From: Candidatus Helarchaeota ASGARD archaeon Hel_GB_B | GTDB lineage: Archaea; Asgardarchaeota; Lokiarchaeia; Helarchaeales; HEL-GB-B | Assembly (NCBI GenBank): GCA_005191425.1 | Contig: SUPR01000002.1 | Location: 2,453 to 66,452 of the forward strand | Length of the DNA: 64,000 bases | Direction: 5' to 3' | In this document: in pieces, positions 5,411-57,104 of the stretch | How the letters are laid out: each line of letters begins with the position of its first letter | Numbering within the stretch: position 1 is the first letter of the stretch | Notes under the pieces: model-generated | The model's input: only the letters and a program-made list of their open reading frames with translations | Databases searched by the model: none | What the model was told of the DNA's origin: nothing | Made by a program: the position numbers and the translations under genes

Positions 5411-7042
5411 ATGAAAGAAAATCCAATAATTTTAGATACTCAAATAAGTAAAGTTGTTTTGTATAGGGATGGCGCAAAAATAGAAAGGAATGGAAATGTA
5501 GCGTTAGAAGTGGGGACTAATGAAATAAAGTTACCTAAAATTTCAAGATTTTGCGATCCAAATAGTATAAGGGTTAGTGGACTAGGTAGCGGTACTCTTG
5601 TAGATATTAAAGTAAATAAAAAATTTCAAGAACAAACAGGATTTCAAAAGTTAGACGAATTAATCAAAAAAAGAAAGGATTTAGAGAAAGAAATTTTTTC
5701 AAACAAAGAAGAATTAGGGTTTATTACCCAACGAAAAAATGATCTTAATCAAATTTTTAAAAATTTTGTAGTAGAGTTTCCAAAATGGTTTTCCAGTGGA
5801 GAAAGCGAGATTAAACGTTTAGAAGATTTAAATTCGCTGACTATAAGTCAGAATAATGAGTTATCATCAAAAATCGGTGAATTAAAACTTAAAATAGAAG
5901 ATTTAGAAAAAAAGTTATCTGTAATTAATGCCGAAATAGATAAAATTAATCGATTACATGATAGAAAAGTCGATGAATATTATGAAATTATAGTGACAAT
6001 TGAATCCGAAAAAAATGAAGAATTTGACCTGAAAGTATCTTATCAAGTAATGAATGCCTTCTGGGAACCGATATATGATGTAAATTTAAGTGAATCCCAA
6101 TGTGAAATAAAATATATGGCATCAATTGTAAATAACACTTTTGAAGATTGGAAAGATGTTGGTTTAGAAGTTTCTACCGCTGTTTTTCAATCAGTAGAAC
6201 TAATTGAACCTGAACCATGGTATATTGATGTATATTATCCTCCACCACCATCACCGCCGCCTAGACGTAAATATGCAATGAAAAAAATGTTGACCAGCGC
6301 CGCAAAGCCTTTAAAAATGGAAGAAAAAGCGGTAGACGAAAGTATGGAAGACGATTTTGTTGAGGAACAACTTGATTATAGACCAGAAATTAAAGAAGAA
6401 ACAGCATCATTTTCAGAAAATGCTACAGGTATCCAAATATTTTCATTACCAAACAAAGTTAATATACCATCAGATGGTAATCCACATCCTATACTTTTAA
6501 CGAAATTTGAATTAGATTCAAGGACTGAATATTATTGGTCTTCAATGAACCCAATTGGAGTAATTGCTCAAAGCATTATAAAAAATGGTGAAACTGTCCT
6601 ATTACCGAGTGAAAAAGTCAAAGTTTTTCATGAAAAAGATTTTGTAGGAGAAACTGCAATTAAGACAATATCGCCATTTGAAGAATTTAAACTGGGTACA
6701 CGATTAAGTTATGATTTAAAAGTAGAAAAGAAACTCTTAAAACGAAAGGCAGAAAAAGCCGGGATTATTAAGGGAAAATTAGGAAAAGATTATACATATT
6801 CCATTATTATCAACAATTTTAAAAAAGATGAAAAGAAAATTACAGTTATTGATAGGATCCCAATGTCGCGCTCAGAACAAATTAAAGTTGCAATTAAAGA
6901 AATTAGTCTTGAACCGAAAAAAGATAATCTAAATATTTTAGTATGGGAATTAACACTAAAACCAGAGGAAACAATTAAAATAAATTATAGTTTTAGTGTA
7001 GAATATGGAAAAGATGTTACTATAGTCCCTCCATTACCATAA
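5411..7042 (+). CDS. DUF4139/MuiA-like protein with central coiled coil and a proline-rich PPPPSPPP linker
   Basis: The N-terminal beta-rich segment (VVLYRDGAKIERNGNVALEVGTNEIKLP) resembles the DUF4140/DUF4139 family. Long heptad-like K/E-rich stretches follow. The assignment is tentative. Confidence 0.35.
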   Translation: MKENPIILDTQISKVVLYRDGAKIERNGNVALEVGTNEIKLPKISRFCDPNSIRVSGLGSGTLVDIKVNKKFQEQTGFQKLDELIKKRKDLEKEIFSNKEELGFITQRKNDLNQIFKNFVVEFPKWFSSGESEIKRLEDLNSLTISQNNELSSKIGELKLKIEDLEKKLSVINAEIDKINRLHDRKVDEYYEIIVTIESEKNEEFDLKVSYQVMNAFWEPIYDVNLSESQCEIKYMASIVNNTFEDWKDVGLEVSTAVFQSVELIEPEPWYIDVYYPPPPSPPPRRKYAMKKMLTSAAKPLKMEEKAVDESMEDDFVEEQLDYRPEIKEETASFSENATGIQIFSLPNKVNIPSDGNPHPILLTKFELDSRTEYYWSSMNPIGVIAQSIIKNGETVLLPSEKVKVFHEKDFVGETAIKTISPFEEFKLGTRLSYDLKVEKKLLKRKAEKAGIIKGKLGKDYTYSIIINNFKKDEKKITVIDRIPMSRSEQIKVAIKEISLEPKKDNLNILVWELTLKPEETIKINYSFSVEYGKDVTIVPPLP

Positions 7043-7323: not shown

Positions 7324-8064
7324 GTGTATATGATGTTTGGAACAGGCGGTGAAAGAGGTTACGATCTAGCAAGTACTACTTTTAGTCCCGAAGGTAGAAT
7401 TTTTCAAGTAGAATATGCCATTGAGGCGGTAAGACATGGTACAGGTGCAATAGGTATTAAGTCAAAAGAGGGTGTAGTATTAACTGTTGAAAAAAGGGTA
7501 GGAGTCCTCCAAAAGCCCGAGACAATAGAAAAAATTTTTGATATAGATACACATATTGGTGCAGCTATTGCGGGACTTACTGCTGATGCCCGTGTATTAA
7601 TAGATTATGCCCGAATTCAAACCCAAAATAACCAGATAATATACAATGAACCAATCTCGACTATTGGACTTGTCAGAAAAATATGCGATGTCAAACAATT
7701 ATATACTTCTAGAGGCGGAGCAAGACCTTTTGGTGTTTCATTCTTAATTGCAGGTGTAGATTCGGATGGAACTCCAAGATTATACATGACAGACCCATCT
7801 GGTGCATATTGGAGTTTTAAAGCGACGTCAATAGGACAAAATTCTGATAAAGTTAAGGATTTTTTAACCCAAAAATATAAGAGCGACTTGACTCTTGACG
7901 AAGCAATAATCCTTTCAATTCAAGCTCTGAAAGAATCTATGGTAGATGAAAGCGAATTAACCGCTAAAAATGTCGAGATTGCTGTAATTAAAACTGAAGA
8001 CCACAAATTTTACCGGTTAACTCATGAAGAAATAGATAACTATATTAAAAAAGGAATAAATTAA
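7324..8064 (+). CDS. psmA: Proteasome subunit alpha
   Basis: Contains the YDLASTTFSPEGRIFQVEYA signature. The track ORF starts on GTG; the true start is probably ATG at 7330 or 7333. Confidence 0.9.
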   Translation: MYMMFGTGGERGYDLASTTFSPEGRIFQVEYAIEAVRHGTGAIGIKSKEGVVLTVEKRVGVLQKPETIEKIFDIDTHIGAAIAGLTADARVLIDYARIQTQNNQIIYNEPISTIGLVRKICDVKQLYTSRGGARPFGVSFLIAGVDSDGTPRLYMTDPSGAYWSFKATSIGQNSDKVKDFLTQKYKSDLTLDEAIILSIQALKESMVDESELTAKNVEIAVIKTEDHKFYRLTHEEIDNYIKKGIN

Positions 8065-8104
8065 TAAAAATAATATTTTATTGAAAATTATTTCTCAATA
8101 TTTT

Positions 8105-8656
8105 TTATTTTAAATATTCAGATTGTATTTCAATAATTTCTTTACTAGTTTTAGCATTAGAATATCTATCCAATAATTCTTGATTTAATAACAAAAATTG
8201 AATACCCCAATTAAATTTATTTAAAATCTTTTTTGAATGTTCTTTATAGCCTAAAATAAATAATGATGCAGCAAATGCCTCAACACTACTTAACTTAAAC
8301 GGTTTTCCATAATTTACTGGATTCGCAGCAATTAAATATGGTAAACTGCGATTGACTGCTCTAATTTTTTTACCATTAAATAACTGTTCTAAAAGAGCCC
8401 ACGAACAGTCCATAACAACGATTCCATTTTTTTCAGCATAGATTCGGTCCTCGGCTGAGAGTGCTTTTATTGCCAATGGATTGAGTAATAAATGGCCCTT
8501 AGAAATTTTAGAAAAAGGAATAATTTTGACAAAACCAAACCGTTTTAATTTTAATAATGTACATTTCTTGGGATCACATTGATTAGCATTATATCCATAA
8601 AGTTTTACAGGAAAAATCTTCCAATTTATATCTATCGCGGACTTAATTTGCTTCAT
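8105..8656 (-). CDS. tsr3: Tsr3-like 18S/16S rRNA aminocarboxypropyltransferase (DUF367)
   Basis: ~180 aa with QCDPKKCT near the N-terminus and a DCSW motif, as in archaeal Tsr3. Confidence 0.55.
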   Translation of the reverse strand: MKQIKSAIDINWKIFPVKLYGYNANQCDPKKCTLLKLKRFGFVKIIPFSKISKGHLLLNPLAIKALSAEDRIYAEKNGIVVMDCSWALLEQLFNGKKIRAVNRSLPYLIAANPVNYGKPFKLSSVEAFAASLFILGYKEHSKKILNKFNWGIQFLLLNQELLDRYSNAKTSKEIIEIQSEYLK

Positions 8657-8746
8657 TCTAATGTCGAAACGATTTATTTGGTTTAAAATAGAATTAAAAT
8701 TAAAATTTAATAATTTTATTAATTATTTTACTATATTTTGTAATAT

Positions 8747-10555
8747 TTATTTTGGGATTATTTCGTTAAAAGGTTTTACAATGAACTCGCAAATAGGATC
8801 ACCTTTATTTATACATTTTACCTCTTTACAAATTACTTTTTCATTAGTTATACATTCAAATATCCCTGCAATAAGACCAGCAGTTAAGTGGTCAACTATT
8901 TCACCGGATTTGTTTTTAACCGAGCCTATGATTGTATTTTCTACAAATAGATGAGCTCTTTTTCTCTCAGGAGAAAAGTATTCCAGATGGAACGAGCCCC
9001 AGCCTTTAGAATTTGCTATTTTTGCCCAAAAATTAAAAATTGCCTCTCCTTCTAATTTTAACTTTTTAGACACATAATTTCCGAATTGAATTGCCATTTG
9101 TCTTCCTAAATTATATTGAATTTCACTGGACTGCTTTTTATCAGTTAATTTTTCTATACTATCAATTATTAGCCTTAAATTTTCATCAGAAATCAAAAAT
9201 GAACGGGACATTTCAATATTTATTATACCGTTTTTATCTATTCTTAAATTATTTTTTAATAAATTGGATTCATAAATTAATGGCTTTAATTTTTCTGCTG
9301 GAGTTGCTATAAAATCACAATATTTACTATAACCTATTGCATTACACTTGATTTCAATACAATCCCATTGATCTTTAGTAAACAGCTCGAGACATGATGT
9401 AATAAGTCCTGCCACTACGCTATGAATTGGTTTATTGGTTTCCCAACGCGCCAAATTATGGACTCTTACCTGTAATATGCCCCGTCGGAGCTCCATTTTC
9501 AATACTTCGACCTTTCCAATTCCAAATGAATTTAATATGTTAATCAGGTCAGCAGGAGTAAATTGAGTGCGAGTTCGTATTATATTTGAAAAAAATGGAT
9601 ATAATTGTTTTCCTGCAAGTTTACCAGCTTTATATAGAGTTTCATTATAAGTTAAATAATCTGTACTTTCAAATAATTTCTTTAATATTTTTGTATACAT
9701 TATTTTTGGAAGTACTAAAAACTCAGAACCAAACAATTTGATAATACCATCTTTAGAGATCGACATGTACTTTTTTATTGTTTCGAAATCTTCTAAAACT
9801 TCAGTTTTTAGTGATATACCTTTGTGAGTTAGGATATACGGGACTTCGGCAGAAATAATATCTGATCCGAACCCTCGGTTTTTAATTACCCTAAGATGAG
9901 GTATTAACGAATCGCCTATTTCTTTAACATTCAGGCTAATTATTGCGCCTGCCAAGTCTTCTAACGCAGTCATCAATTGTACAGAGTGGGCCCGGCGCTC
10001 GATATAAAATAATCCTAAATCACCTGTTTTTCTAAGAAAGTGGAAGATATCCCGAACAAATTTAAGTACCTTATTCTCATCTCCAACTGTAACGATCATA
10101 CTGGTGATGTCATCAAAAATCCATCTGGCATTAACACCTTCTGGAATATGTTCTCTTCGCAATCGTTCTATTTCATAACGCACTTTTGATAGGTCATGCG
10201 GACTACTCATCGTCTGAATTGATTCTTTGAACTTAAATTCTGGTGGAAATTCTACTTTACCATAACAATTTAAAATAATATACCTCTTTTTCTTTGTTAT
10301 CTCTTGGAAAAACGAAGGTGATGTCAAAAAGTCAGGTAATTGATAGAACTGATGAGGTGGATATAAATATTCAATAACAAAAACCTTTCCTCTATCTTTT
10401 AATAATTGTTCTAGAGCAAAATAACCCATAAATGCCGTTTTTCGCGTGCTAGGATGTTCCGAAATTATTAAAATTGCACAACCCGGAGATAACCCACCAC
10501 CTAAAAGTTTATCTAAACTCGCTAGCCCAAAAGGAATTACTGATCGTTTAATCAT
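8747..10555 (-). CDS. KaiC/RecA-superfamily ATPase-like domain (degenerate P-loop) fused to two C-terminal V4R (4-vinyl reductase/TRAPP-like) domains
   Basis: The N-terminus has RecA-like GLASLDKLLGGGL...AILIISEHPSTRKT with a degenerate Walker A. Two C-terminal modules each end in Cys-containing V4R-like motifs (CIEIKCNAIGYSKYCDF; KEVKCINKGDPICEF). Confidence 0.5.
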   Translation of the reverse strand: MIKRSVIPFGLASLDKLLGGGLSPGCAILIISEHPSTRKTAFMGYFALEQLLKDRGKVFVIEYLYPPHQFYQLPDFLTSPSFFQEITKKKRYIILNCYGKVEFPPEFKFKESIQTMSSPHDLSKVRYEIERLRREHIPEGVNARWIFDDITSMIVTVGDENKVLKFVRDIFHFLRKTGDLGLFYIERRAHSVQLMTALEDLAGAIISLNVKEIGDSLIPHLRVIKNRGFGSDIISAEVPYILTHKGISLKTEVLEDFETIKKYMSISKDGIIKLFGSEFLVLPKIMYTKILKKLFESTDYLTYNETLYKAGKLAGKQLYPFFSNIIRTRTQFTPADLINILNSFGIGKVEVLKMELRRGILQVRVHNLARWETNKPIHSVVAGLITSCLELFTKDQWDCIEIKCNAIGYSKYCDFIATPAEKLKPLIYESNLLKNNLRIDKNGIINIEMSRSFLISDENLRLIIDSIEKLTDKKQSSEIQYNLGRQMAIQFGNYVSKKLKLEGEAIFNFWAKIANSKGWGSFHLEYFSPERKRAHLFVENTIIGSVKNKSGEIVDHLTAGLIAGIFECITNEKVICKEVKCINKGDPICEFIVKPFNEIIPK

Positions 10556-10767: not shown

Positions 10768-10907
10768 TGGGCTCGCTGGGACTTGAACCCAGGAGCTCCC
10801 GCGTTCCGTACATTTAACCGATATAAAATACCCCGGGCGGGAATCATAATCCATTCTAGCTTATATAGAATTAATCTATATTATGAAAGGTGCTAGACCA
10901 CGAGCCC
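10768..10907 (-). tRNA. Intron-containing tRNA (~140 nt); it has a canonical acceptor stem and T-arm, and apparently two introns (D-loop and anticodon region); the isotype is unresolved
   Basis: On the minus strand the 5' end GGGCTCG pairs with the 3' CGAGCCC plus discriminator A. The T-arm is CTGGG-TTCAAGT-CCCAG. About 66 nt are extra relative to a 74-nt tRNA. The anticodon stem CCCGC/GCGGG encloses 33 nt. Confidence 0.55.
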
Positions 10908-23220: not shown

Positions 23221-24732
23221 TTGATAGAAAATGACGTATATGATGTAATCGTAATTGGGTCTGGAGTTGGCGGGTCTGCATGTGCGGCTATTTTAAGTCA
23301 AGCTGGATTTAAAACTTTAATTTTGGAAAAAAATAACGAAATTGGAGGCGCATGTAGTTCTTATTTCAAGGAAGGCTTTATAATTGATAGGGCATGTCAT
23401 ATTATTCCAATTGGAATAAAAGGGGTCATTGGAAAAATTTTAAAGAAATGTGGTCTGAAAAATCTAGTTTTTTCAAAAAAAATAGGTACTGATTCAGCTG
23501 TTAGACTATTAAATAGTGATTATATACCATTGTCTTTTGCACCAAATGATTTAATTTCTCTTGATCAATTTAAAGGACTTTTTGATGCATTTGGCTTTAG
23601 TCCAGAGGAACAGACTGAATTGATAAATGTAGTATTTAAAATATTACAATATCCAAGGTCTAAAATTCGTCAAATGTTTGAAACAAAAATTATATTATCC
23701 GAATTTCTTGATAAGTTGACAAATTCTGAAAGAGTTAAATTCTTTTTAAGTTGGTTTAATGGACTTATGTTTGTTATACCACCCACTCAAACTAGTGCAG
23801 CTGAATTCTTACATTCATTCCAAGAAATGGTTTTTAAAAATGATGTTTCTTATCCAATGGGCGGTTGTATTGCAATCCCTCAAGCATTTATTGAAGGTGT
23901 TAAAAAATTTGGCGGAATTTATAAACCAAATATTGAAGTAAAAAAAATTCTAATCGAGGATAATAAAGTAATAGGAGTAGAATTGAATAATGGTAATATA
24001 ATCAATTCTAAAATTGTGATAAGTAACTTAAATATCAAACAAACAGTTAATAAATTAGTTGGTCCAAAATATTTTGATAAACAATATTTAGAGAAAGTTA
24101 ACTCTTTGAAAGGTTCTGGGAGCACAATTGTATTAAAAATAGCTGTAGATAAGGTTATAATTCCAAATTATTCATCTGTGCATTTAATACATACTGATAA
24201 TTTTTCTAAAATAATAGAAAGCTATAAAGATTGGGAAAAAATGGAAGCTGAAGAACGAATTCCAGATAACCCTGTATTTATGGTACCAATTCCAAGCAAT
24301 ATAGATAAAAGTCTAGCTCCTCCTGGTAAACAACTCCTAATTTTCGGAAGTGGCGGAATAGCTACAAGTGAAAAACGGAATTGGGATCCATGGATAGAAA
24401 GATATTATGAAGCTATTCTAGATTTCCACCCTGAAATTGATGACCATTTAATTTTCATGGATATTACTACTCCATCTCCTAATACCGGTAAAATTAAAGC
24501 GTCAACAGACCTTACATCATATAGAGGAAATTTTATGGTCGAAGGCACTTCATTAACACCAGACCAAGCAGGAAAATATAGAATAAGTTCACAACTACCA
24601 ATTGAAGGATTATTTGTTGTTGGAGACAGTGCAGGTACTGATACACATGGAGTAGGCACTCAAATAGCAGCAGACAGCGGCTTAAAATGTGCTCAATATA
24701 TCACTTCAAAATATAAAATGAAGACACATTAA
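23221..24732 (+). CDS. FAD-dependent oxidoreductase, phytoene desaturase (CrtI/CrtD)-like family
   Basis: N-terminal Rossmann dinucleotide motif DVIVIGSGVGGSACAAIL. ~500 aa amine-oxidase/CrtI-like length. Confidence 0.55.
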   Translation: MIENDVYDVIVIGSGVGGSACAAILSQAGFKTLILEKNNEIGGACSSYFKEGFIIDRACHIIPIGIKGVIGKILKKCGLKNLVFSKKIGTDSAVRLLNSDYIPLSFAPNDLISLDQFKGLFDAFGFSPEEQTELINVVFKILQYPRSKIRQMFETKIILSEFLDKLTNSERVKFFLSWFNGLMFVIPPTQTSAAEFLHSFQEMVFKNDVSYPMGGCIAIPQAFIEGVKKFGGIYKPNIEVKKILIEDNKVIGVELNNGNIINSKIVISNLNIKQTVNKLVGPKYFDKQYLEKVNSLKGSGSTIVLKIAVDKVIIPNYSSVHLIHTDNFSKIIESYKDWEKMEAEERIPDNPVFMVPIPSNIDKSLAPPGKQLLIFGSGGIATSEKRNWDPWIERYYEAILDFHPEIDDHLIFMDITTPSPNTGKIKASTDLTSYRGNFMVEGTSLTPDQAGKYRISSQLPIEGLFVVGDSAGTDTHGVGTQIAADSGLKCAQYITSKYKMKTH

Positions 24733-25282
24733 CTTTATATATATTAGAAGATATGAATTTTTTTCATTTATTCATCTGGGACATGATTCAATATAAAATA
24801 ATTTCTGTTTTTTTTTTTCAGTACATATAACGTATAAAAAATTAACATGATTATTTACTATATTGACCGTTTTTCATTTTTTTTAATTTTTCTTGTATTT
24901 TTTTATTGTGTCGTTAGAGTAAATTAATCTTGAAATATTATATTGTTAGATTCTCAACCATACCCCAGTCCTTATTACTCTTACTTTTCTATTTTAAATT
25001 AATATCTTGTTAATAATAAGTATTAATTACATTCGACCAAAAATTTCTTCTAAAGATTTAAAATCAATGAAATTTTATTATTATTTTTAAAATAGACAAA
25101 TAAAATTGTAAAATAAAAACAGAAAATGATTATGAAATAACTTAATAAATAATAAAAGAAATTAACTTCTAAAAATAACCATTATTATTCTTATAAATTT
25201 AATTAAATTTCCAATTCTTTATTATTTACCTCCAAAAAATTCTAATAGACAAACATAATTAATATTCTTGTGAAAATTTGAG

Positions 25283-26716
25283 ATGAACGAACGAATTCTA
25301 GAAAAAAAAAGAAGGACTTATGGCGAGCATTTAACACCTATAAAAATATTTAAACAATTTATTTTAGGCGAAATTAAAGATATATTATATGATTATAAAT
25401 GGGTTGACCTATACGCAGGAGAGGGAAATTTAATATTGCCCATTTTGGACATAATACCTAAAGAATCAAGAAATAAATTTTTTAAAAACCATATATTTCT
25501 ATTTGATGTTCAAAAAGAATTAGTAGAAAAAGCAATAATAAATGCTACTAATTATGGAATTTCAATAAATATTGCCCAAAAAAATATAATTGTCAAAGAT
25601 ACATTAAGTTCATTCCCCAAATTCATCCTTAACTCTACAATTCCTGTATACCATATCACGAACCCACCATATTTGTACATTGGATATATTATGAAGCATA
25701 AAGAAACTAATAAATATCTCAAATTATTCGAAGGAAAAAATGAAGGATATCAAGATTTATATCAGATAGCGATGATTAATGACTTAAGAAATAATGTTAA
25801 AAAAATGATATATATAATTCCATCAAATTTTTTATTTGGAGCCTCCGGGACTAATAAAATTCGTGATAATTTCTTGAAATATTATAAAATTAATAAAGCA
25901 TATATTCTTGAACAAGAAATATTTAAACATACTGGAGTAAATGTCGTTATTTTATTTTTTGAAAAAAAGTTAAATCCAAAAGATGAAATCTTATCATTTC
26001 AAGGAATAAAAATTAATAATTCAAATAAAGAAAAAACTTACCAACTTGACCCAAGATTTCATTACCGAGCTGGAAATTTATTTGAAGAATTTGTCATTAA
26101 AAATAAAGCTAAAAATCCATTGAAAATTTCTTATTATTTAACTAATGAAGAAGTTAAAAAAAATCCCGGTGATTATTCAATAGAAGTAATTGATTCTAAC
26201 TCCTATAATGGAAATCAATATGCAAAAAAAGTAATTAATGTAAATAAAACCTTATATAATAAGATTAAATCAAATATTTTGTTTGTTAGAACAGTAGATA
26301 CCGGTTCTATGAACGGAAGAGCCGGTCTATATCTAGTAAGAGAATGGTTTGGTGTAGATGGTATTTTAGTTACAAAAGCAAAATATCGGACTCATCCTAT
26401 CCAAATATTTCTTACTCCTCAAATCTCTTTACATGACCAAATTTTATTAAAAAAATATTTTAATTTATTACTTGAATATTTCAGGAAAAATACAGACAGT
26501 GAATTTATGACTACATATAAATATTCTGATAGCATATATACCCGAAAATATTTAGGACTTTCTCAAGCAAGAAAATTAATCGAAACATTTCCGATAAATC
26601 TATCTCAATCTAAGAAAAAATTAATGAGTGACCTCATTAAAAATAATAAAAATGAAAATTTAAAAAGTTTTATTGAACATTTATTTAATACCAATGATTT
26701 AACTGCTTATTTTTAA
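25283..26716 (+). CDS. N6-adenine DNA methyltransferase (NPPY-type), apparently an orphan
   Basis: GEHLTP (motif X/I-like), DLYAGEGNL (AdoMet-binding motif I) and HITNPPYLY (motif IV NPPY). No adjacent restriction endonuclease is recognisable. Confidence 0.65.
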   Translation: MNERILEKKRRTYGEHLTPIKIFKQFILGEIKDILYDYKWVDLYAGEGNLILPILDIIPKESRNKFFKNHIFLFDVQKELVEKAIINATNYGISINIAQKNIIVKDTLSSFPKFILNSTIPVYHITNPPYLYIGYIMKHKETNKYLKLFEGKNEGYQDLYQIAMINDLRNNVKKMIYIIPSNFLFGASGTNKIRDNFLKYYKINKAYILEQEIFKHTGVNVVILFFEKKLNPKDEILSFQGIKINNSNKEKTYQLDPRFHYRAGNLFEEFVIKNKAKNPLKISYYLTNEEVKKNPGDYSIEVIDSNSYNGNQYAKKVINVNKTLYNKIKSNILFVRTVDTGSMNGRAGLYLVREWFGVDGILVTKAKYRTHPIQIFLTPQISLHDQILLKKYFNLLLEYFRKNTDSEFMTTYKYSDSIYTRKYLGLSQARKLIETFPINLSQSKKKLMSDLIKNNKNENLKSFIEHLFNTNDLTAYF

Positions 26717-26961
26717 AAAAGTGTAATATTTAATAATAGATACATTAATTTTCCAGAAGAGTTTATAGATAATATAAAACAAGATGAAAATTAACGACTT
26801 ATAGTTTATTTGTTTCTTCCATTAGAAGATGATTAAATGACTTCTAATTTTTTTTGTATATAAAGTTAATTCAATCCTTCATAACTTAAAAAAATGTTTT
26901 TAATATTATAATCTTTAATTAATATCATTTTTCGCAATGACAAATAAACAAGGAATTTAAA

Positions 26962-27645
26962 ATGAAGCAGATAAAATTACAATATAAAATTTCAATTATT
27001 TTGATTAGTACCGGATTAATTATATCAATTATTTTATTTAATACTTTTTGGTCGTTGCTTGGCTTAATGTTTATTGGGGGCGGATTAATTTTAGCGATAA
27101 TTTATTATGAGCAGAAATGGATTAAGCGGAAATATTTAAAATGGGGGTTGACTGGGACATTAATTTTTTCGATAGTATATGGTATTTTGGAGTATACTCT
27201 TTTCGATTCTCCATGGAATAACTACTTTAAAATCTCAGATTGGTTTCCTGATATGTATTATTATTGGGCTTTTATGACCATACTAAATTTCTCAATAACA
27301 ATAATAGCCTCACGAGGCTCAATTGCGATGTCTTTAAGTTCTATCCCATTATTTGCAACAAATGAAGATTTATGGTATTGGTTATCGCAAAGTATCCATG
27401 AATTAAATTATGTATTTCCAGTAAGTAATTGGTTTGATAAAAGATTCCCATTTTTAAGAGGCTTAGGTGAGCCACTACCATTTTTCCCTTATTTCCCACG
27501 CTTCTATCTTGTAGGTTGGATATTAATTTCCATATTATTAATTATCCAATTCAAGAATTTACAAGGTAAAAAATTTATAATTTCTATACTTTGCTTTATT
27601 ACTGCTTGTTTTGGGTGTTTATTATTAATACCAGTTTTTTTTTAA
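26962..27645 (+). CDS. Hypothetical integral membrane protein
   Basis: Multiple hydrophobic helices. No family recognised. Confidence 0.3.
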   Translation: MKQIKLQYKISIILISTGLIISIILFNTFWSLLGLMFIGGGLILAIIYYEQKWIKRKYLKWGLTGTLIFSIVYGILEYTLFDSPWNNYFKISDWFPDMYYYWAFMTILNFSITIIASRGSIAMSLSSIPLFATNEDLWYWLSQSIHELNYVFPVSNWFDKRFPFLRGLGEPLPFFPYFPRFYLVGWILISILLIIQFKNLQGKKFIISILCFITACFGCLLLIPVFF

Positions 27646-27938
27646 AAATTAAATTAAATTTCTTATCAAAATTAATTTTTCTAGATATAATTCTCAATAA
27701 ATGTATTTTTTAAATAAAATACAATAAATATTGGTCTAATAAAAAATATCCAAGTAATAAATCCAAAACATAATAAAACTAAATCCTAAAACATACTTTT
27801 TATGTTGAAAATCTTTATATCTTGGTCTCAAAAATTTATATATTTTTATAACAAATAATAATCTCAATAATAAATAATAATCTTAATAACTCTATAATTT
27901 TATAGGAAATTTGATTTCCGCATTTAGAAGATGGTTTT

Positions 27939-28598
27939 ATGGTAGATGATAAAGAGCAGAGAACAAAAACCGAAAATAAAAATCCATATGACATCTGTAC
28001 ATGGCGTGATAGTTCAAATTGCAAAGGTTGTAATTTAAATGAGAATTTGAATTGTAGATTTAATGGATTAAATAAGTCTAGTTTGATTTTTGGTCTGTCA
28101 TTTTTTTTGTATTTAGTACCTGTTTTAATAGGGATGATATGGTCCAATTTGGTTATATATATTATTTTCTGGGTAATATATACAATATTCTTTTTTCAAT
28201 TCTGGGAAATCCGCGTTTTATGTAGACATTGCCCTTTTTGGTCTGAAGGTGGAAAAATACTTCATTGTTTTGCTAATTATGGTTTTTACAAAGTTTGGAA
28301 ATATAATCCAGGTCCAATGACTAAATGGGAGAAGGCCCAATTTTTAGTTGGAATAGCTATATTAATGGGTTATTTTATTCCATTTCTGGTTGTATATAAT
28401 CAACTTTTAATGTTAATAATAACGATAATTGGAATTATCTTTTTCTTTGTGAATGTTTTTATTAACCATTGTCCTAAATGTGTAAATTTTTCATGTCCAT
28501 TCAACAGAGTTCCAAAGAAAATAGTAGATGGATATTTGAAATTAAATCCAGTTATAAAAGACGCTTGGGAAAAAAAAGGATATAAAATAGGGAATTAA
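27939..28598 (+). CDS. Hypothetical Cys-rich integral membrane protein
   Basis: Cys clusters (CKGCNLNENLNC; CRHCPFW; CPKCVNFSCPF) flank three to four TM helices. Confidence 0.35.
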   Translation: MVDDKEQRTKTENKNPYDICTWRDSSNCKGCNLNENLNCRFNGLNKSSLIFGLSFFLYLVPVLIGMIWSNLVIYIIFWVIYTIFFFQFWEIRVLCRHCPFWSEGGKILHCFANYGFYKVWKYNPGPMTKWEKAQFLVGIAILMGYFIPFLVVYNQLLMLIITIIGIIFFFVNVFINHCPKCVNFSCPFNRVPKKIVDGYLKLNPVIKDAWEKKGYKIGN

Positions 28599-28699
28599 TA
28601 GGTTCTCTTAAGAACTTTTTAAAAATAATTCCAATATAATCCACCAATTATTATTGAACGATATAGATAATCTAAATTACTAATTCAATGAATTGAAAA

Positions 28700-29611
28700 A
28701 TGGGCTCAATTAGTTCTAAATCCGAAATAAAGCAACGTGCAACCTCTTATTTCGAAAAAAATTTAGATTTTAATCAAATTGATAAATTTCAAGTGAAGTC
28801 AATAAATGAACTATTAAAAGAAGAATATGAATTAATTCCTGACAAGGAACGGATCGGAAAAGGAAGGGTATATCTAATTAAAATTATAGCTAAAACATTA
28901 TACCAATTAATTAAAAGCAAATTTCCGAAAATGAATTCAGATGAAACTCAGGGGCATGAATTTTTAATAAATATTTTAAAACTTATTAAAAACTGTAATA
29001 ATATTAATGATAAGAATATTTCGATATTTGCAATTCATTTAACTTCAAATTTAGTTTTAGATTATTTTGACGATGCTATTTCTTTGGTCGAAAATTGGAT
29101 AGATAACGAAGATTGGGAAATTAGAGAAAATAGTGTTTATCCAATATTATCTGGATTGAAAACTAACCGAGAAAAGACAATAGAATTTTTAAGAAAATGG
29201 ATAAAAAGTGAGAACCCAAATTTTCGAAGATTTGTTGCAGAATCATTACGACCTAGAGCAGAAATAAAATGGTTGAGAGACCCGACCCAAAATGATGAAA
29301 TTTTAAAAATATTAACCGAATTAAACCATGATAATTCAATCTATGTGAGAAAATCTGTAGGTAATAATTTAAAAGACCTTTCCAAATATATGCCCGAAAA
29401 AATTCTAACTCTGATAGAAGAATGGTTAAACGAAAAAGAAAAATTGAACGAAAAAGAACAAAAAAATTTAATATGGACTATTTATCAAGCTTTAAGATGG
29501 CTTAAAGATAAAAATCCAAAATATCACAAATGGATCGAAAAATTAGTGGGAAAAAATTATCTGCTATATTTTGATGAAAAAAGAAATAGAAATGCTATTC
29601 CAAGAAAATAA
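28700..29611 (+). CDS. HEAT/ARM-repeat protein, DNA alkylation repair enzyme (AlkC/AlkD)-like
   Basis: Helical-repeat composition. The segment YVRKSVGNNLKDLSKYMPEKI resembles the conserved W/Y-V-R-R...L-R-D region of the DNA_alkylation family. Confidence 0.4.
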   Translation: MGSISSKSEIKQRATSYFEKNLDFNQIDKFQVKSINELLKEEYELIPDKERIGKGRVYLIKIIAKTLYQLIKSKFPKMNSDETQGHEFLINILKLIKNCNNINDKNISIFAIHLTSNLVLDYFDDAISLVENWIDNEDWEIRENSVYPILSGLKTNREKTIEFLRKWIKSENPNFRRFVAESLRPRAEIKWLRDPTQNDEILKILTELNHDNSIYVRKSVGNNLKDLSKYMPEKILTLIEEWLNEKEKLNEKEQKNLIWTIYQALRWLKDKNPKYHKWIEKLVGKNYLLYFDEKRNRNAIPRK

Positions 29612-30085
29612 ATTTAGCCTTCTATTATTTTAGTCATTAAAATTTCAGCCATTTTTTTCTCTAAAATTTTAATTTGGATAATATTTTTATTTTAATTTTT
29701 TAATTCACATCTTTATTATTCTAAATAATTGGAAAATATTGTAAACTTAAGCCAATTAATTAATAAATCGGATATTATTAACCCAAATGATGATTGGAAA
29801 TCCAATAAATCAACTTAAAATGAAATTCTAAATTCTTGTTTCAACGACTGGATTTGCGCATTTTTTAATTTATAAATAAAAATTTCTATTAATAAATAAT
29901 TTTTATAAATGATGTAATAAAATGGAAGTTTGACATAAAACATACTTTATTATTAATTAATTTTTCACATATTATCATTTAATATTACTGTATTTTCATC
30001 TTAAATCTTATCTTATAATTTGCGACTAACCAAGTAGGGTAGTTTAAAAGGAATTTTGAAATAATAGTAGTATAAATTTTTTAGG

Positions 30086-34199: not shown

Positions 34200-34330
34200 T
34201 GGACCGGCCGGGAATTTCGTCTAAGTCCACAAAGAAATCCAAACGAATTTCATTTTTTTAGAGGACTAAATTTCGAACCCGGGGCCTCCAGATTGCAAGT
34301 CTGACGATCTACCAACTGATCTACCGGCCC
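34200..34330 (-). tRNA. tRNA-Ala (anticodon UGC) interrupted by a ~58-nt intron inside the T-loop (between positions 59/60)
   Basis: Minus strand reads GGGCCGG-TA-GATC-AGTTGGTA-GATC-G-TCAGA-CTTGCAA-TCTGG-AGGCC-CCGGG-TTCGAA[58 nt]T-CCCGG-CCGGTCC-A. The G3:U70 pair is the alanine identity element. The intron contains a 5-bp internal helix (AGTCC/GGACT). Confidence 0.75.
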
Positions 34331-49929: not shown

Positions 49930-50419
49930 TATGTGTTCCAGTTAATGAATATATAATGTCCTCTAAGATATTAATATCAATAGGGATTCTATTAATATCT
50001 TTTTCCGATACTCTTGCTTTATTTTCAATTTCTCCGGTAGGTAAATATATTTGATTAATTCCTAAAACAGGGATCGGGGCTATTAAATCTTCAAGAATCT
50101 TTTTAGGACTTTTTGATTTTTCTATTACTCTAAAATTTTTATTAAATTTCTCTTGTAAAATTTTTTTTGTCTTTCCATAATTACCTATAATGTGATTTAT
50201 TTCTCCTTTTCCTACTATCAAGATTACGAGGTCTTCCTTTTCAATAGCTTTATAAAAGCTGACCCTCTTCAAAGCAGGAAATTGCTTTTCAAGGTCTAGT
50301 AATGTCCGGGATAAATCAATTTCTAATTGTGTTACTTCTCCATTTCTTAATTTAGTTTCACACGATGAACATAGTACGCCTGTCTTAGCACATACCTTAC
50401 AAATCGGTATTTTTCGCAT
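49910..50419 (-). CDS. Predicted RNA-binding protein: N-terminal Zn-ribbon plus KH-like domain(s)
   Basis: CKVC...CSSC zinc ribbon. GKGEINHIIGNYGKTKKI resembles a KH GxxG loop. Confidence 0.35.
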   Translation of the reverse strand: MRKIPICKVCAKTGVLCSSCETKLRNGEVTQLEIDLSRTLLDLEKQFPALKRVSFYKAIEKEDLVILIVGKGEINHIIGNYGKTKKILQEKFNKNFRVIEKSKSPKKILEDLIAPIPVLGINQIYLPTGEIENKARVSEKDINRIPIDINILEDIIYSLTGTHIRIVSE

Positions 50420-50957
50420 TATTTATTTTCTCCATATTACTTGAAGCTATTTTTAATTTCATTATTAATTAAATTAAATTTGAATTATAATAACTATTTA
50501 TTAAAATTAAATTCTTATTATTATTTCAAAATAAAGTATTTCAATTTTTTTCATTATAATATCTTTTAATAATTTTAATGTCAATTAAATTTTCAGATTA
50601 ATTAAAATAAAAGGTACCAAATTATAACTAAATTGAAATAATTAAAGGGAAATTACCAAACATTCTAAAGAAATTTAAGATTATTTTTATTATTAAATAG
50701 ATATATTTTTTAAATTATAAAGTATTCCATTTAATAAATATTTTAAATAATTATTTCATTATGAAATTTCGAGATTAATTATAAAAAATAAAAAATTTCA
50801 TTTAATTTCTTTATGTTTTTCCTTAATTTCAACTTAAATTAAAATATCTATTGATATCTTTACAAATTTTCATTTTTTCGATAAACTTTATTAATTTATT
50901 TAATCTTATTCCGAATTGAATGAAAAAAATTTCATTAAATAAAAATGGTATTTTATA

Positions 50958-51482
50958 ATGCGCTCAAGAAAAAGTATTAAATTGGAAAGAGATATTTCAA
51001 ATTGGCTTAAGGATATTCAAGAGATAAAAGAAATTTTTCAAAAAAAATCAAAAACGATCATTGAATATATTGAGCGAATAGTTGATTTAAATAAAAATAA
51101 AGATGAAAAGATTTTTCTAATGACTGGTCTAGAAGATGCGATCTACGTTCTCGAAAATAAAACATTTGAAAAGTTAAATAACATTTTAGAAGATATACTT
51201 GGAAATGAACTTGATGAAAATAAAGAAATTATAAAAATGTTCAATTATTTAAAAAATTTCAAGAATGAATTAGCATCTATTCAGATATCGACAAAAAACT
51301 TCCTAAAAATCTATAATTTAAACAATGATAATACTGAAATCTTATCCAATTTCATTTCAAGTATTAAAAAATCAAAGGATAGTTATGAAACAATTTTATC
51401 ACAAATGAATGAATCATTTTCTAATGTAATAAATTATCTAAACAAACAATATCAATTTTCTCGTCAAGTTGACATAATTTAA
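50958..51482 (+). CDS. Hypothetical protein (174 aa), helical
   Basis: Supported by the ORF only. Confidence 0.2.
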   Translation: MRSRKSIKLERDISNWLKDIQEIKEIFQKKSKTIIEYIERIVDLNKNKDEKIFLMTGLEDAIYVLENKTFEKLNNILEDILGNELDENKEIIKMFNYLKNFKNELASIQISTKNFLKIYNLNNDNTEILSNFISSIKKSKDSYETILSQMNESFSNVINYLNKQYQFSRQVDII

Positions 51483-51570
51483 TCTTTTAATTTTTTATTT
51501 CATTTAGTAATTAAATTCAATTTTTAATTATAAAATTATTTTAAATATTTACTATTATAAATAATAGATA

Positions 51571-53871
51571 ATGGAAAATAGAACAAAAAAATATTTTAAT
51601 CATAAATTACTTAAGAAGGACAAAATAGAATATAGAGCATATCAAGAAGCTATAATGGGGGCATGTGCAAACAAAAATAGTCTTGTAGTCCTACCTACTG
51701 GACTGGGAAAAACTATTATTGCAATTTTAATATGTATTGTTAGGTTACATAAATATCCTGGTTCTCAAATAATTTTTCTTGCCCCTACTAAACCATTGAT
51801 TCAACAACATTATCAAACTTTTAAAGAGTTATCAAATTTTAATGAAGACCAAATGGTATTGATAACTGGAGCAATTTCACCTGAAAAAAGAGTTAATTTA
51901 TATAAAACAGGTCAGTTTTTTTTTATTACACCTCAAACTTTACAAAATGATATTATTAATTCGAGAATTGACCTTTCCAATGTTTCTCTTATTGTTTTCG
52001 ATGAAGCGCACCGAGCTATTGGTAATTATGCTTATGTTTTAATAGCCGAAAAATACATAACAAATGCTAAATTTCCCCAAATTTTAGCAATAACCGCATC
52101 TCCTGGCTCAATTAAAGAAAAAATACTTGAAATAATTGAAAATTTACATATTAAAAAAATTGAAGTTAGAACTGAAGATAGTCCTGATGTTAAACCTTTT
52201 ATTCAACCAATTGAATTAAAATGGCTAAGAATTGATCTGCCTAAGGAATTTAACGAAATTAAGAACATTCTAGAAACTAAATTAAAAGAATGTTTATTAA
52301 TTCTAAAGAAAAATGCATTGATAAATAGTATAAATATTTCCTCTATAAATAGAACTGATTTAATTAAATTACAAAAATCATTACCTCGTAAAATTCAAGA
52401 GGCTAATGAAAATAAACAAGAACTTTTTGAAAGTTTAAGAACAGTAGCAATAGCTATTAGATTTTCATATATGCTTGAATTACTTGAAACCCAAGGAATT
52501 TCATCTCTCTCCAGATATTTAGATAAACTTTATGAAGACTCTTCAAAAAAAGATTCATCAAGAACAATTAGGGATTTAATGTCACAACCATTTATGAATA
52601 AAATTAATCAAATTTCTAAAAATCTAATAAAAAAAGGAGTTGAACATCCTAAAATCCCTATACTTCAAGATTTACTTGAAAAACAATTTAGAAAAAAGCC
52701 TGAATCCCGCGTGATTATCTTTTGCCATTTCAGAGTTACCACTAAAACATTAGAAAAAATATTTCAAGATAATCCTATAATTAAAGCTGCGAGATTTGTA
52801 GGCCAACAAACTAAAACTGGTGATAAAGGGCTCTCTCAAAAAGACCAAATTATAATCTTGGACAACTTTAAATCTGGAATATATAATACCTTAATAGCTA
52901 CATCTGTAGCTGAGGAAGGATTAGATATTGCTGAATGTGATATGATCATATTTTATGACACCGTTCCTAGCGCTATTAGAGATATTCAGCGCCGCGGTAG
53001 AACAGGAAGAAAAAAACCAGGTAAAGTAATCATTTTAACTGCAAAAAATACTCGTGATGAAAGTTATTATTGGGTCTCTTATAGTAAAAAGAAAAAAATG
53101 AAATCATTACTTGATGATTTGATCGAAATTTCTCAAAAATTAGATGCACAAGCAAAAAGTCATACTCAAACCTCAATCTCTGATTTTATTATAAAAAATA
53201 AGAAAAAAAATAATGAAAAACAAGATATTAAAATTCAGATAATTGTTGATTCACGCGAATCTTCTTCCTCTATCTTGAAGCATCTTTCAAAAATGGGCGC
53301 TGATATAAAAATTGAAAAATTAGATATTGGCGATTATATTCTATCTGACAAAGTTGCTATTGAAAGAAAAACGGTAAATGACCTCATCAATTCAATCATA
53401 GATTCACGATTATTCAAAGAATTAAAATCTTTAAAAAGCGTATATTTAAAGACATTCCTAGTTATTGAAGGCGAAATTATTTATGAATTTTCTAGAATCC
53501 GAAAAGAAGCGTTACAAGGCGCTATTGTTTCTGTTATGCTTGATTTCTATGTACCAGTTATTTTTACAAAATCTCCCGAAGAAACAGCTGAATGGTTATA
53601 TAAATTAGCTAAAAAAGAACAGATTAAAGGTAAAAAACCGCTCATTAGACCTGATAAAACCCCTCTCTCATATAATATAAAAAGAATACAAGAATTTATT
53701 CTCGCAGGATTCCCCGATATTGACAGTAAACGCGCCCAAGATTTATTAAATTATTTTGGTAGTCTAGAAGAAATTTTTAATGCTCCTATTGAAGCATTAA
53801 TGAATGTAAAAGGAATTGGTAAAAAAATTGCCAAACAAATAAAGGAAATCTTAAAAGCCAAATATTTTTAA
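51571..53871 (+). CDS. hef: Hef: SF2 helicase fused to ERCC4/XPF-type nuclease and HhH2 domains
   Basis: Helicase motif I LPTGLGKT and DEAH-like FDEAH. The C-terminus has the ERCC4 nuclease motif (VAIERKTVNDL, GD...) and a terminal HhH pair (NVKGIGKKIAKQI). Confidence 0.85.
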   Translation: MENRTKKYFNHKLLKKDKIEYRAYQEAIMGACANKNSLVVLPTGLGKTIIAILICIVRLHKYPGSQIIFLAPTKPLIQQHYQTFKELSNFNEDQMVLITGAISPEKRVNLYKTGQFFFITPQTLQNDIINSRIDLSNVSLIVFDEAHRAIGNYAYVLIAEKYITNAKFPQILAITASPGSIKEKILEIIENLHIKKIEVRTEDSPDVKPFIQPIELKWLRIDLPKEFNEIKNILETKLKECLLILKKNALINSINISSINRTDLIKLQKSLPRKIQEANENKQELFESLRTVAIAIRFSYMLELLETQGISSLSRYLDKLYEDSSKKDSSRTIRDLMSQPFMNKINQISKNLIKKGVEHPKIPILQDLLEKQFRKKPESRVIIFCHFRVTTKTLEKIFQDNPIIKAARFVGQQTKTGDKGLSQKDQIIILDNFKSGIYNTLIATSVAEEGLDIAECDMIIFYDTVPSAIRDIQRRGRTGRKKPGKVIILTAKNTRDESYYWVSYSKKKKMKSLLDDLIEISQKLDAQAKSHTQTSISDFIIKNKKKNNEKQDIKIQIIVDSRESSSSILKHLSKMGADIKIEKLDIGDYILSDKVAIERKTVNDLINSIIDSRLFKELKSLKSVYLKTFLVIEGEIIYEFSRIRKEALQGAIVSVMLDFYVPVIFTKSPEETAEWLYKLAKKEQIKGKKPLIRPDKTPLSYNIKRIQEFILAGFPDIDSKRAQDLLNYFGSLEEIFNAPIEALMNVKGIGKKIAKQIKEILKAKYF

Positions 53872-56002: not shown

Positions 56003-56783
56003 GTGATCACTGCCACCCTTTATTTTAATTTTTTTTGATCTATAATATGTTTAAAATTTTAATAATTTTAATATTTACTTTTTTATACATTTAAAACTTT
56101 TTTAAAGACATAATGTTGTCTAAATAATTTAAATTAAATTTATTTCACGATTTTTCAAATTTTTATAAATAAAAATTCATTAAGTCCATTCAAAATAAAA
56201 CCAAAAAAACTCCTTTTTAATATTATTTTAGAATAGATTACTATTTGTTATATTTTAATATTGGAATTGATTTTTTAAATTCATTTTGAGATTTTCAATC
56301 AATAATAGCTATACTCATTCTCATTTTTAAAGTTTTTTTCCATTTATGTTTTTCATTGTTATTTCAAAACCAATTAATTTTAATAAATACAATTAGAAAT
56401 ATAATCAATTTGGTCAATAATAACATATAAAATAATCTATTACAAATCAAAAAAGTTCTTTTTTAGATAATCTTGGAATTAAAATGATATATTGTAAAAA
56501 AGTTTGTTCTAAAATATGATATTTTTTGAAAAATAAATTTTAAAATATAAAAATCTATTAAATATATTAAAACTATTATGTATCTGCTACATTTTTAAGG
56601 ATCTATGATCAAATGTTTTTAATTTTAATTGAATAAATTATAAAATCTATAAAAATAGGTAATTTTTAGTAATGATTTTCTAGAATTTAATAGTTTGAAA
56701 TAAAAAAATTTAAGAATTTGTTTTTTAAAATAAAATATACTATTAAAATTGATTGATACGTCAAAATTATAAAAAGTTTTATA

Positions 56784-56885
56784 GGGCCGGTGATCTAGAA
56801 GCAATATATCGGCAATATTATTGGAAATCGGTATGATATCGCCCTCACGCGGCGAAAATCGTGGGTTCAATTCCCACCCGGCCCA
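56784..56885 (+). tRNA. tRNA-Val (anticodon CAC) interrupted by a ~29-nt intron in the D-loop
   Basis: GGGCCGG-TG-ATCT-AG[~29 nt]TC-GGTA-TGAT-A-TCGCC-CTCACGC-GGCGA-AAATC-GTGGG-TTCAATT-CCCAC-CCGGCCC-A. All stems pair. 102 nt total against a 73-nt mature length. Confidence 0.75.
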
Positions 56886-56909
56886 TAATACTCCAAGAGG
56901 TGAATAACA

Positions 56910-57104
56910 ATTCCAGTAGAAATAAAAGATGAAAATAAATTATTAAAAATTGCAAAAGATTCGACAGAATGCAAAGTTATTAGAGTTGGCGATAAGGTAA
57001 AAATAAAAGTTAGAGGTACAAAATATTTATATACTTATATTACGAATCCTAAATCTTCTGAAGAACTTTTAAAAAAGATCCCTTGTAAAATTATCGAATT
57101 ATAA
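56910..57104 (+). CDS. rpl38e: Ribosomal protein L38e; not in the ORF track because it has no ATG, and the probable start is AUU
   Basis: Translation (I/M)PVEIKDENKLLKIAKDSTECKVIRVGDKVKIKVRGTKYLYTYITNPKSSEELLKKIPCKIIEL matches L38e (MPKQIEEIKDF...VKFKVRCSRYLYTL...). AGGTGA Shine-Dalgarno at 56898-56903 lies 6 nt before ATT. An in-frame TGA sits directly upstream. Confidence 0.65.
   Translation: MPVEIKDENKLLKIAKDSTECKVIRVGDKVKIKVRGTKYLYTYITNPKSSEELLKKIPCKIIEL

Follow-up and report, generated by a model that had tools for sequence, protein, structure and literature searches.

A KaiC-like domain with a degenerate P-loop fused to two V4R units in a Helarchaeota protein

What is the role of a protein in which a KaiC-like domain without a functional-looking P-loop is followed by two V4R units? 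The question is raised by one gene in a 64,000-nucleotide stretch of the genome of Candidatus Helarchaeota archaeon Hel_GB_B (assembly GCA_005191425.1, contig SUPR01000002.1, positions 2,453 to 66,452; G+C ~29%), referred to below as the window. Domain searches and AlphaFold2 modelling recovered both the RecA-like and the V4R folds that an initial annotation of this gene had proposed. We hold, with middling confidence, that the window protein is a cytoplasmic ligand- or redox-sensing scaffold with an inactivated KaiC domain. The gene and its parts, in window coordinates, are as follows.

8747-10555, minus strand: complete KaiC-like plus two-V4R gene from the list of open reading frames (602 amino acids, ATG start, stop codon at 8747-8749)
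9791-10555, minus strand: RecA-fold KaiC-type domain, taken as inactivated ('iKaiC'), residues 1-255 (Pfam, profile search, Foldseek)
9281-9790, minus strand: V4R unit 1, residues 256-425, a complete sensor fold of XylR_N plus V4R type (Pfam, profile search, Foldseek)
8750-9280, minus strand: V4R unit 2, residues 426-602 (best Pfam stretch 549-595; V4R region of the NCBIfam MsvR model at 535-593)

The window protein was 100% identical to a protein from a Candidatus Helarchaeota metagenome-assembled genome (MAG). Seven further clusters, from Hel- and Lokiarchaeota MAGs and metagenomes, were 38-71% identical to it over the full length; conservation at this level in independent MAGs indicates that the gene is real. 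Two antisense open reading frames on the plus strand (8661-8954 and 9091-9312) are low-complexity frames inside or overlapping the conserved gene and were taken as spurious. The family alignment comprised eight homologues, down to 38% identity, and residues termed invariant below are invariant among these eight. No hydrophobic segment of membrane-spanning length was present in the 602 residues, and the protein is predicted to be soluble. A comparison of the window protein with PADLOC defence models gave 0 families at E <= 0.01, and a role as part of a known defence system was rejected on this result.

The N-terminal domain matched Pfam PF06745 (KaiC/ATPase) at residues 8-250 with 39.1 bits (cut-off 26.6). 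A profile built from the family and its relatives matched both halves of cyanobacterial KaiC in the PDB (E ~1e-56), as well as PH0284 (6e-38), PH0186 (3e-35), FlaH (4e-19) and SSO2452. In the AlphaFold2 model of the whole protein, the mean predicted local distance difference test score (pLDDT) was 82, the KaiC-like domain was mostly above 90, and the predicted template modelling score (pTM) was 0.56. Foldseek searches with the domain model returned KaiC-CI (4TLx), 2ZTS, 4YDS and 2DR3 at E ~1e-11 and a target-normalised template modelling score (TM) of ~0.8. Thus, Pfam, profile search and Foldseek all recovered the RecA/KaiC-like fold. The single-domain archaeal KaiC-like proteins PH0186 (2ZTS), PH0284 (2DR3), SSO2452 (2W0M) and ArlH/FlaH (4YDS) resemble the window domain in fold and size (TM ~0.75-0.8; profile E 1e-19 to 1e-38), and the N-terminal motif G-x-x-LD-x-LLGGG is common to them and the window domain. 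The canonical KaiC domains from the same searches all have GxxGxGK[ST], whereas the window domain lacks the P-loop glycines and the catalytic glutamates.

By homology, the protein is a member of the KaiC/RecA superfamily and of the V4R family; assignment to the narrower families considered here was rejected. Circadian KaiC has two KaiC domains and the window protein one, and its NCBIfam model PRK09302 scored 27.6 bits against a cut-off of 408. The NCBIfam models for ArlH/FlaH scored 13.3 and 25.9 bits (cut-offs 215 and 194); no archaellum genes were found near the window gene, whose neighbours encode Tsr3, proteasome alpha and an amino-acid kinase. Pfam matches to Elp4/PAXNEB, DUF7090 and DUF7504 were below their cut-offs and overlapped the KaiC match; they reflect the shared RecA fold.

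To describe the active site, residues were placed by hhalign profile-sequence alignment to KaiC CI, which located four segments.

10436-10462, minus strand: degenerate Walker A SEHPSTRKT, residues 32-40, aligned column by column with KaiC SGTSGTGKT
10352-10372, minus strand: EYLYPPH, residues 62-68, with Y63/L64 at KaiC CI Glu77/Glu78 ('...VFVTFEESPQ')
10103-10123, minus strand: Walker-B-like strand WIFDDIT, residues 145-151, aligned to KaiC 'RVAIDSVT', with D148 and D149 invariant
9875-9883, minus strand: K225-N-R227 ('IKNRG'), aligned to KaiC CI Lys224/Arg226 (LKLRG)

All three P-loop glycines are replaced in SEHPSTRKT (by E, S and R), and Lys39 is kept. S32, H34, T37 and K39 are invariant, indicating that the degenerate Walker A is a family trait and not a sequencing error; the residue after the lysine (position 40) is T, G or Q. 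The initial annotation had called the Walker A replaced, and this proved true of the whole family. The catalytic glutamate pair is also lost: Y63, Y65, P66 and H68 are invariant, and the neighbouring E62 is not conserved. D148 falls on the KaiC Walker B aspartate, E186 is invariant or nearly so, and K225, N226 and R227 are invariant. The KaiC CI residues aligned with K225 and R227 belong to what we take, from established knowledge, to be an interface or arginine-finger motif. By sequence, the domain is a KaiC homologue that lacks two defining catalytic features and retains some phosphate- or interface-contacting residues. Because the P-loop glycines and the catalytic glutamates are lost, it would not turn over ATP. 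Loss of the glutamate pair (Y63/L64) strengthens the earlier suggestion of a probably non-catalytic scaffold; the kept K39/T40, D148 and K225/R227 may allow some residual binding of nucleotide or phosphate.

The retained residues bear on a different reading, in which the RecA-like domain is not dead. The loop S-[ED]-H-x-x-T-x-K would bind a nucleotide or phospho-ligand, and the protein would be a ligand-regulated NTP-binding switch, or a slow NTPase or autokinase like KaiC/ArlH, with the V4R pair as regulatory input. K39, T40 in most homologues, D148/D149, E186 and K225/R227 are fully or almost fully conserved even at 38% identity, and they align with the KaiC Walker A lysine, Walker B aspartate and Lys/Arg finger. 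Among V4R-fused groups, the P-loop lysine is kept only by the window family, and a canonical Walker A (GPPGTGKT) is found only in the sister cluster P0020, so that an active version of the architecture exists. However, the change of three glycines to E, S and R is normally incompatible with a phosphate-wrapping loop, the residue after the lysine varies, both catalytic glutamates are gone, and most of the wider fusion family also lacks the lysine and the aspartate. We consider a nucleotide or phosphate switch unlikely, with a modest chance of being correct; it is the main rival to the sensor scaffold.

The sensor part of the proposed scaffold lies in the C-terminal half of the protein. Pfam V4R (PF02830) matched two stretches with 76.4 bits (cut-off 31). 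The two units are homologous to each other (23% identical, with reciprocal phmmer matches), and each spans ~170 residues, compared with the 62 residues of the Pfam V4R core. Pfam, the inter-unit alignment and the unit profiles thus agree on two C-terminal V4R domains with conserved cysteines, as initially described. The V4R-unit profile, covering ~170 residues, matched MJ1460 (2OSD; 4e-9) and the whole aromatic-sensor domain of MopR (4e-6). In Foldseek searches with the modelled units, MopR, PoxR and DmpR were best (E 2e-10 to 5e-8, TM ~0.7, ~180 columns), and TRAPPC3/Bet3 (3e-6 to 3e-4), MJ1460 (3e-5) and thorarchaeal TRAPPC3 (5e-5) followed.

These comparisons place MJ1460 and TRAPPC3/Bet3 (7YH3, 6AQ3, 2J3W) in one fold superfamily with the window units, and they resemble these units less than the bacterial sensors do. 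Beyond TRAPPC3 and MJ1460, the window units have an extra N-terminal three-stranded sheet and helices of XylR_N type. V4R and TRAPPC3 domains are zinc-binding dimers with ligand cavities, which bind lipids such as palmitate, and the thorarchaeal protein Thor-TRAPPC3 is likewise a zinc-binding dimer with cavities (PMC10933270). The bacterial sensors (E ~1e-10) are about four orders closer than TRAPPC3/Bet3 (1e-6 to 1e-4), and the TRAPP label therefore holds at fold level only. 'Bet3-like', the term used in the initial annotation, is right as a statement of fold; as to nearest relatives, the units are of the sensor type. Membership in the TRAPPC3/Bet3 family was rejected on these weaker fold matches and because no GTPase or longin gene was detected in the 64-kb window.

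The sigma-54 activators MopR, PoxR, DmpR and XylR, with their sensor (A) domains, are also alike in layout: in these proteins, as in the window protein, a V4R sensor is joined to an oligomerising NTPase-fold domain. The partner differs in kind and place. In the bacterial sensors, active AAA+ and DNA-binding domains lie C-terminally, whereas the partner in the window protein is an inactive RecA/KaiC fold, located N-terminally. The window protein also has two sensor units per chain, unlike any of these four.

A model of the tandem V4R part, made with an alignment that included stand-alone tandem-V4R proteins of ~350 amino acids, reached pLDDT 82.7 and pTM 0.73. The rise in pTM from 0.56 for the whole protein suggests that the two modelled units have a defined mutual arrangement. 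The stand-alone tandem-V4R proteins themselves (~350-365 amino acids; P0045, P0060, P0073, P0076 and others) occur in metagenomes, and both of their units have 'KPVC' at the first zinc ligand. The C-terminal module of the window protein may derive from such proteins or be a sister to them.

Both units carry a candidate metal site, with the following elements.

9317-9355, minus strand: putative zinc motif of unit 1, E401-x2-C404-x8-C413, from hmmalign to MopR E178/C181/C189
9422-9424, minus strand: H378, probable fourth ligand of unit 1, in the same helix register as MopR C155 (conserved glycine minus 5)
8789-8824, minus strand: putative zinc motif of unit 2, E578-x2-C581-x7-C589, from hmmalign, with the spacing of MopR 178/181/189
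8891-8893, minus strand: invariant D555 at the first-ligand position of unit 2, five residues before the conserved helix glycine

In PoxR, MopR and DmpR, four residues hold a structural zinc: a Cys in alpha6, followed by Glu, Cys and Cys at spacings of 23, 3 and 8 (bioRxiv 10.1101/2021.01.17.427014). The Glu/Cys/Cys triad of both window units agrees with MopR in spacing. The invariant cysteines of the window family are C404/C413 in unit 1 and C576/C581/C589 in unit 2, and E578 is also invariant. H378 is invariant and matches the 'PIH' of MJ1460, whose motif 'PIH...E-x2-C-x7-C' matches unit 1. The first zinc ligand would thus be His378 in unit 1 and Asp555 in unit 2, in place of the Cys of MopR, PoxR and DmpR.

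The same cysteines invite a reading as redox sensors. In this alternative, the Cys/Zn sites of the V4R units would be oxidised or release zinc under oxidative stress, with a change of conformation or oligomeric state, in line with a proposal made for the cysteines in the V4R domain of the methanogen-specific regulator MsvR; the host here is a strict anaerobe. MsvR has a C-terminal V4R domain with conserved cysteines at positions homologous to those of the window unit, and it is the best NCBIfam match of unit 2, on its V4R part (535-593). The redox-relevant cysteines C206/C232/C240 of MaMsvR (PMC3729527) have a 26/8 spacing, as do the MopR zinc ligands, and their positions match the window motif, in which C404/C413 and C576/C581/C589 are invariant. 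However, the equivalent of MaMsvR C206, which gave the clearest mutant effect on redox-dependent DNA binding, is His or Asp here, and the site in MopR, PoxR and DmpR holds a structural zinc. MsvR combines a helix-turn-helix (HTH) DNA-binding domain with one V4R domain, whereas the window protein has no HTH output and has lost the first Cys. Membership in MsvR was rejected: the score was 32.7 bits against a cut-off of 220, on the V4R part alone. We regard a sensor of redox state only as doubtful, with a small chance of being correct.

As to what the sensor scaffold might bind, the phenol-anchoring residues of MopR are His106 and Trp134 (PMC10598577). By hmmalign they map to L341/V365 in unit 1 and to A514/V538 in unit 2, all aliphatic. 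A phenol sensor was rejected on this replacement; the aliphatic anchors make a phenolic ligand unlikely and an apolar one plausible. Such a pocket would also suit apolar cargo, and the V4R pair may be imagined as a BchJ-type module that handles a hydrophobic cofactor or lipid intermediate, either as its carrier or as an accessory to an enzyme, with a metabolic and not a signalling role. The binding of lipids such as palmitate by V4R and TRAPPC3 domains (PMC10933270) fits this alternative, and so does the presence of a URO-D-family gene and other metabolic genes in the syntenic block described below. Against it, the neighbours are heterogeneous (amino-acid kinase, GCV-H, Tsr3, proteasome alpha) and do not persist in more distant relatives, and fusion to a KaiC-like domain is an architecture of signalling type. 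We consider a carrier role very improbable.

The distribution of the architecture is narrow. Of 1.84 billion cluster representatives, searched exhaustively, 484 matched, only four of them at E < 1e-30. The two-V4R form (~600 amino acids) was confined to P0001-P0011; it comprises eight protein clusters, all from Hel- or Lokiarchaeota. A scan of ~185,000 species genomes, bounded by the peptide patterns used, confirmed three loci, all in uncultured archaea or Helarchaeota. A broader class, with a KaiC-like domain and one V4R domain in ~400-430 amino acids, was found in Jord- and Freyarchaeota, Thermococcaceae and unclassified Euryarchaeota MAGs under the names 'V4R domain-containing protein' and, at JGI, 'KaiC/GvpD/RAD55 family RecA-like ATPase/predicted hydrocarbon binding protein', an automatic label that gives one member the names of both domains. 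It shares with the window protein the N-to-C architecture and the theme of a degenerate P-loop; unlike the window family, most of its members also lack the P-loop lysine and the Walker B aspartate. Walker A was degenerate in 45 of the 49 V4R-fused KaiC-like domains collected, which argues that inactivation of the KaiC domain accompanies V4R fusion.

Two Freyarchaeota-type contigs carry arrays of four tandem one-V4R paralogues (~420 amino acids) on the same strand (L006, 1953-7272; L007, 3-5213). The paralogues are 32-41% identical to one another, 1:1 orthologues on the two contigs are 76-90% identical, and all P-loops in the array are degenerate ('ADSxTLxD'). These four-paralogue arrays suggest a hetero-oligomeric complex; the window gene, in contrast, is a singleton.

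Fusion of inactivated KaiC domains to signalling domains is an archaeal theme, proposed to operate in KaiC-centred signalling networks, according to the accessible portion of one survey (Galperin et al. 2018, PMC5847659, citing Makarova, Galperin & Koonin 2017). The iKaiC proteins described there resemble the window protein in having a single KaiC-family RecA-fold domain, a degenerate ATPase site and a signalling fusion. Their fusions, in haloarchaea and methanogens, are to REC, PAS and HalOD1 domains, and that portion of the survey mentions no V4R, tandem V4R or Asgard host. No description of a KaiC-V4R fusion was found in the literature searched, a search outside which lies Makarova et al. 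2017, which may list it. The joining of an inactivated KaiC domain to a sensor domain is of a known kind; what sets this variant apart is its tandem V4R units, the partial retention of its active site and its narrow distribution in Helarchaeota. The architecture had been called uncommon, and the two-V4R form is indeed rare and without a description in the literature searched; it is not unique, given the one-V4R class.

Taken together, we propose the following working model of the sensor scaffold. Both V4R units would be zinc-stabilised ligand-binding folds of the MopR/PoxR/MJ1460 type, each taking up a small, apolar, non-phenol ligand in a hydrophobic pocket buried within it. They would probably pack against each other within one chain, as a pseudo-dimer that corresponds to the usual V4R/TRAPPC3 homodimer. 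The KaiC-like domain, which still has its RecA fold and K39, D148 and K225/R227 as interface residues, would serve as the output, a module for protein-protein interaction or oligomerisation whose state depends on whether the V4R units have bound ligand. It may dock onto active KaiC-like ATPases encoded elsewhere in the genome or mix into their rings. MopR and DmpR, which join V4R to AAA+, set a precedent for a sensor with an oligomeric NTPase and support this model, as do the archaeal fusions of inactivated KaiC to signalling domains in the accessible part of PMC5847659.

Several points weigh against the model. The invariant P-loop lysine, Walker B aspartate and arginine finger exceed the needs of a purely structural scaffold, and hint at residual binding of phosphate or nucleotide. 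The first zinc ligand is His or Asp and not Cys, so that the zinc site is putative. The V4R pseudo-dimer is a prediction from the pTM value. The gene has no conserved operon partner, as synteny is seen only at 67-71% identity and the context differs at 38-42%, and no KaiC-like or V4R paralogue was found within the 64-kb window.

The neighbourhood of the gene was compared among relatives. Downstream lie a gene for Tsr3 (same strand, 90-nt gap), then genes for proteasome alpha and for a DUF4140/DUF4139 protein; on the upstream side are genes for a member of the amino-acid kinase family, for GCV-H, for a URO-D family protein and for a phosphoribosyltransferase. The block of amino-acid kinase, window gene or homologue, Tsr3 and proteasome alpha is common to the window and loci L001, L004 and L005 (the 67-71% relatives). 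It is absent at the 42% relative, where DUF362, HcyBio and a convergent CHAT protease are found instead, and at the 38% relative (L013), where enolase precedes the homologue and a Ras/Roc-type gene follows it. The search of the neighbourhood for conserved partners therefore yielded none kept beyond the 67-71% relatives; a conserved operon partner was rejected because the block is lost at 42% and 38% identity, and the block was ascribed to inherited gene order, not function.

Some neighbouring genes merit a record of their own. The CHAT-domain (caspase-like) protease gene (~1100 amino acids; L002, 9815-13141, and L003, 3757-7038, minus strand) converges on the 42% homologue, with an overlap of 4 nt at the 3' end of the latter. 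The DUF4140/DUF4139 protein (window 5411-7042, plus strand; 543 amino acids) has a proline-rich insert, PPPPSPPPRR; its gene adjoins the proteasome alpha gene in L001 and L004 and is absent in L005.

The Ras/Roc-type gene bears on one more alternative, in which the Bet3-like V4R units, displayed on a ring-forming RecA-like scaffold, would form a TRAPP-like, GTPase-regulating assembly with Asgard small GTPases. The fold search does recover TRAPPC3/Bet3 and Thor-TRAPPC3. In L013 (Helarchaeota LW55_61), a 301-residue Ras/Roc-family protein (7969-8874, plus strand), its own P-loop apparently degenerate (GENEEYKS), is encoded directly downstream of the 38% homologue on the same strand; next comes a weak TackOD1-like gene, and ~4 kb upstream there is an Arf/Gtr1-RagA-like gene. 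The Freyarchaeota-type one-V4R array in L006 lies downstream of an Arf/Ras/RagA-type gene, with a convergent FrhB/FdhB-like gene next. On the other side, GTPase genes were not detected in the 64-kb window, nor at L001, L002, L004, L005, L011 or L012. Small GTPases abound in Asgard genomes, so that occasional chance adjacency is expected; the V4R units resemble bacterial sensors far more than they do TRAPPC3; and no longin or roadblock partner was seen. A link to small GTPases, present in L013 and more loosely in L006 and L008 but nowhere else, was set aside and retained as a long shot, and we consider a TRAPP-like role of the window protein very improbable. Only marginally less remote is the wider idea that Asgard KaiC-like/V4R proteins are subunits of an unrecognised ring- or TRAPP-like assembly. 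Dead RecA-fold domains would form a homo- or hetero-oligomeric platform, for which the four Freyarchaeota paralogues offer a comparison; the platform would display Bet3-like V4R pockets for lipids or other ligands and act with small GTPases, such as the Ras/Roc-type protein encoded next to the homologue in LW55_61. If true, this would be an archaeal precursor or analogue of the eukaryotic GTPase-regulating tethering complexes. The redox-only sensor, the TRAPP-like GTPase-linked assembly and the metabolic carrier are all less well supported than the reading with a live RecA-like domain.

The 511-bp gap upstream of the window gene was considered as a site of a regulatory RNA or small open reading frame. 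This was rejected, as the gap contains a two-intron tRNA-Pro gene; the tRNA is absent upstream of relatives and is thus unrelated to the window gene. The tRNA-Pro(GGG) gene (window 10768-10907, minus strand, 140 nt) has a 38-nt intron in the D-loop after position 16 (10854-10891) and a 27-nt intron in the anticodon loop at 37/38 (10804-10830). The spliced tRNA (75 nt) forms a clean cloverleaf with C33 in place of the usual U33. ARAGORN and Rfam, run on the raw sequence, both missed it. A tRNA-Ala(UGC) gene (window 34200-34330, minus strand) has the G3.U70 identity pair and a T-arm insertion of ~55-58 nt; Rfam sees its 5' 57 nt only, and ARAGORN reports it only once the insertion has been taken out. 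Standard tRNA finders evidently under-call tRNAs in this genome, since the disrupted tRNA-Ala(UGC) escapes ARAGORN and is only partly seen by Rfam. Segments of lower G+C content are present at window positions 24000-30000, 50000-52000 and 56000-58000 (0.22-0.25, compared with ~0.29-0.31 elsewhere).

KaiC-like proteins have been proposed as archaeal signalling hubs, and to our knowledge almost none has a known input outside the cyanobacterial clock and the archaellum. A disabled KaiC domain hard-wired to a ligand-binding V4R module would give a concrete handle on one such input. Because the V4R fold is a prokaryotic relative of a TRAPP core subunit and occurs here in Asgard hosts, a link to GTPase regulation, if any, would bear on eukaryogenesis; the evidence for such a link is weak. 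The family is now annotated as 'V4R domain-containing protein', a name that a two-domain description could replace. These findings describe a testable, uncharacterised Asgard signalling architecture, in which known parts are combined as archaeal signalling proteins commonly combine them.

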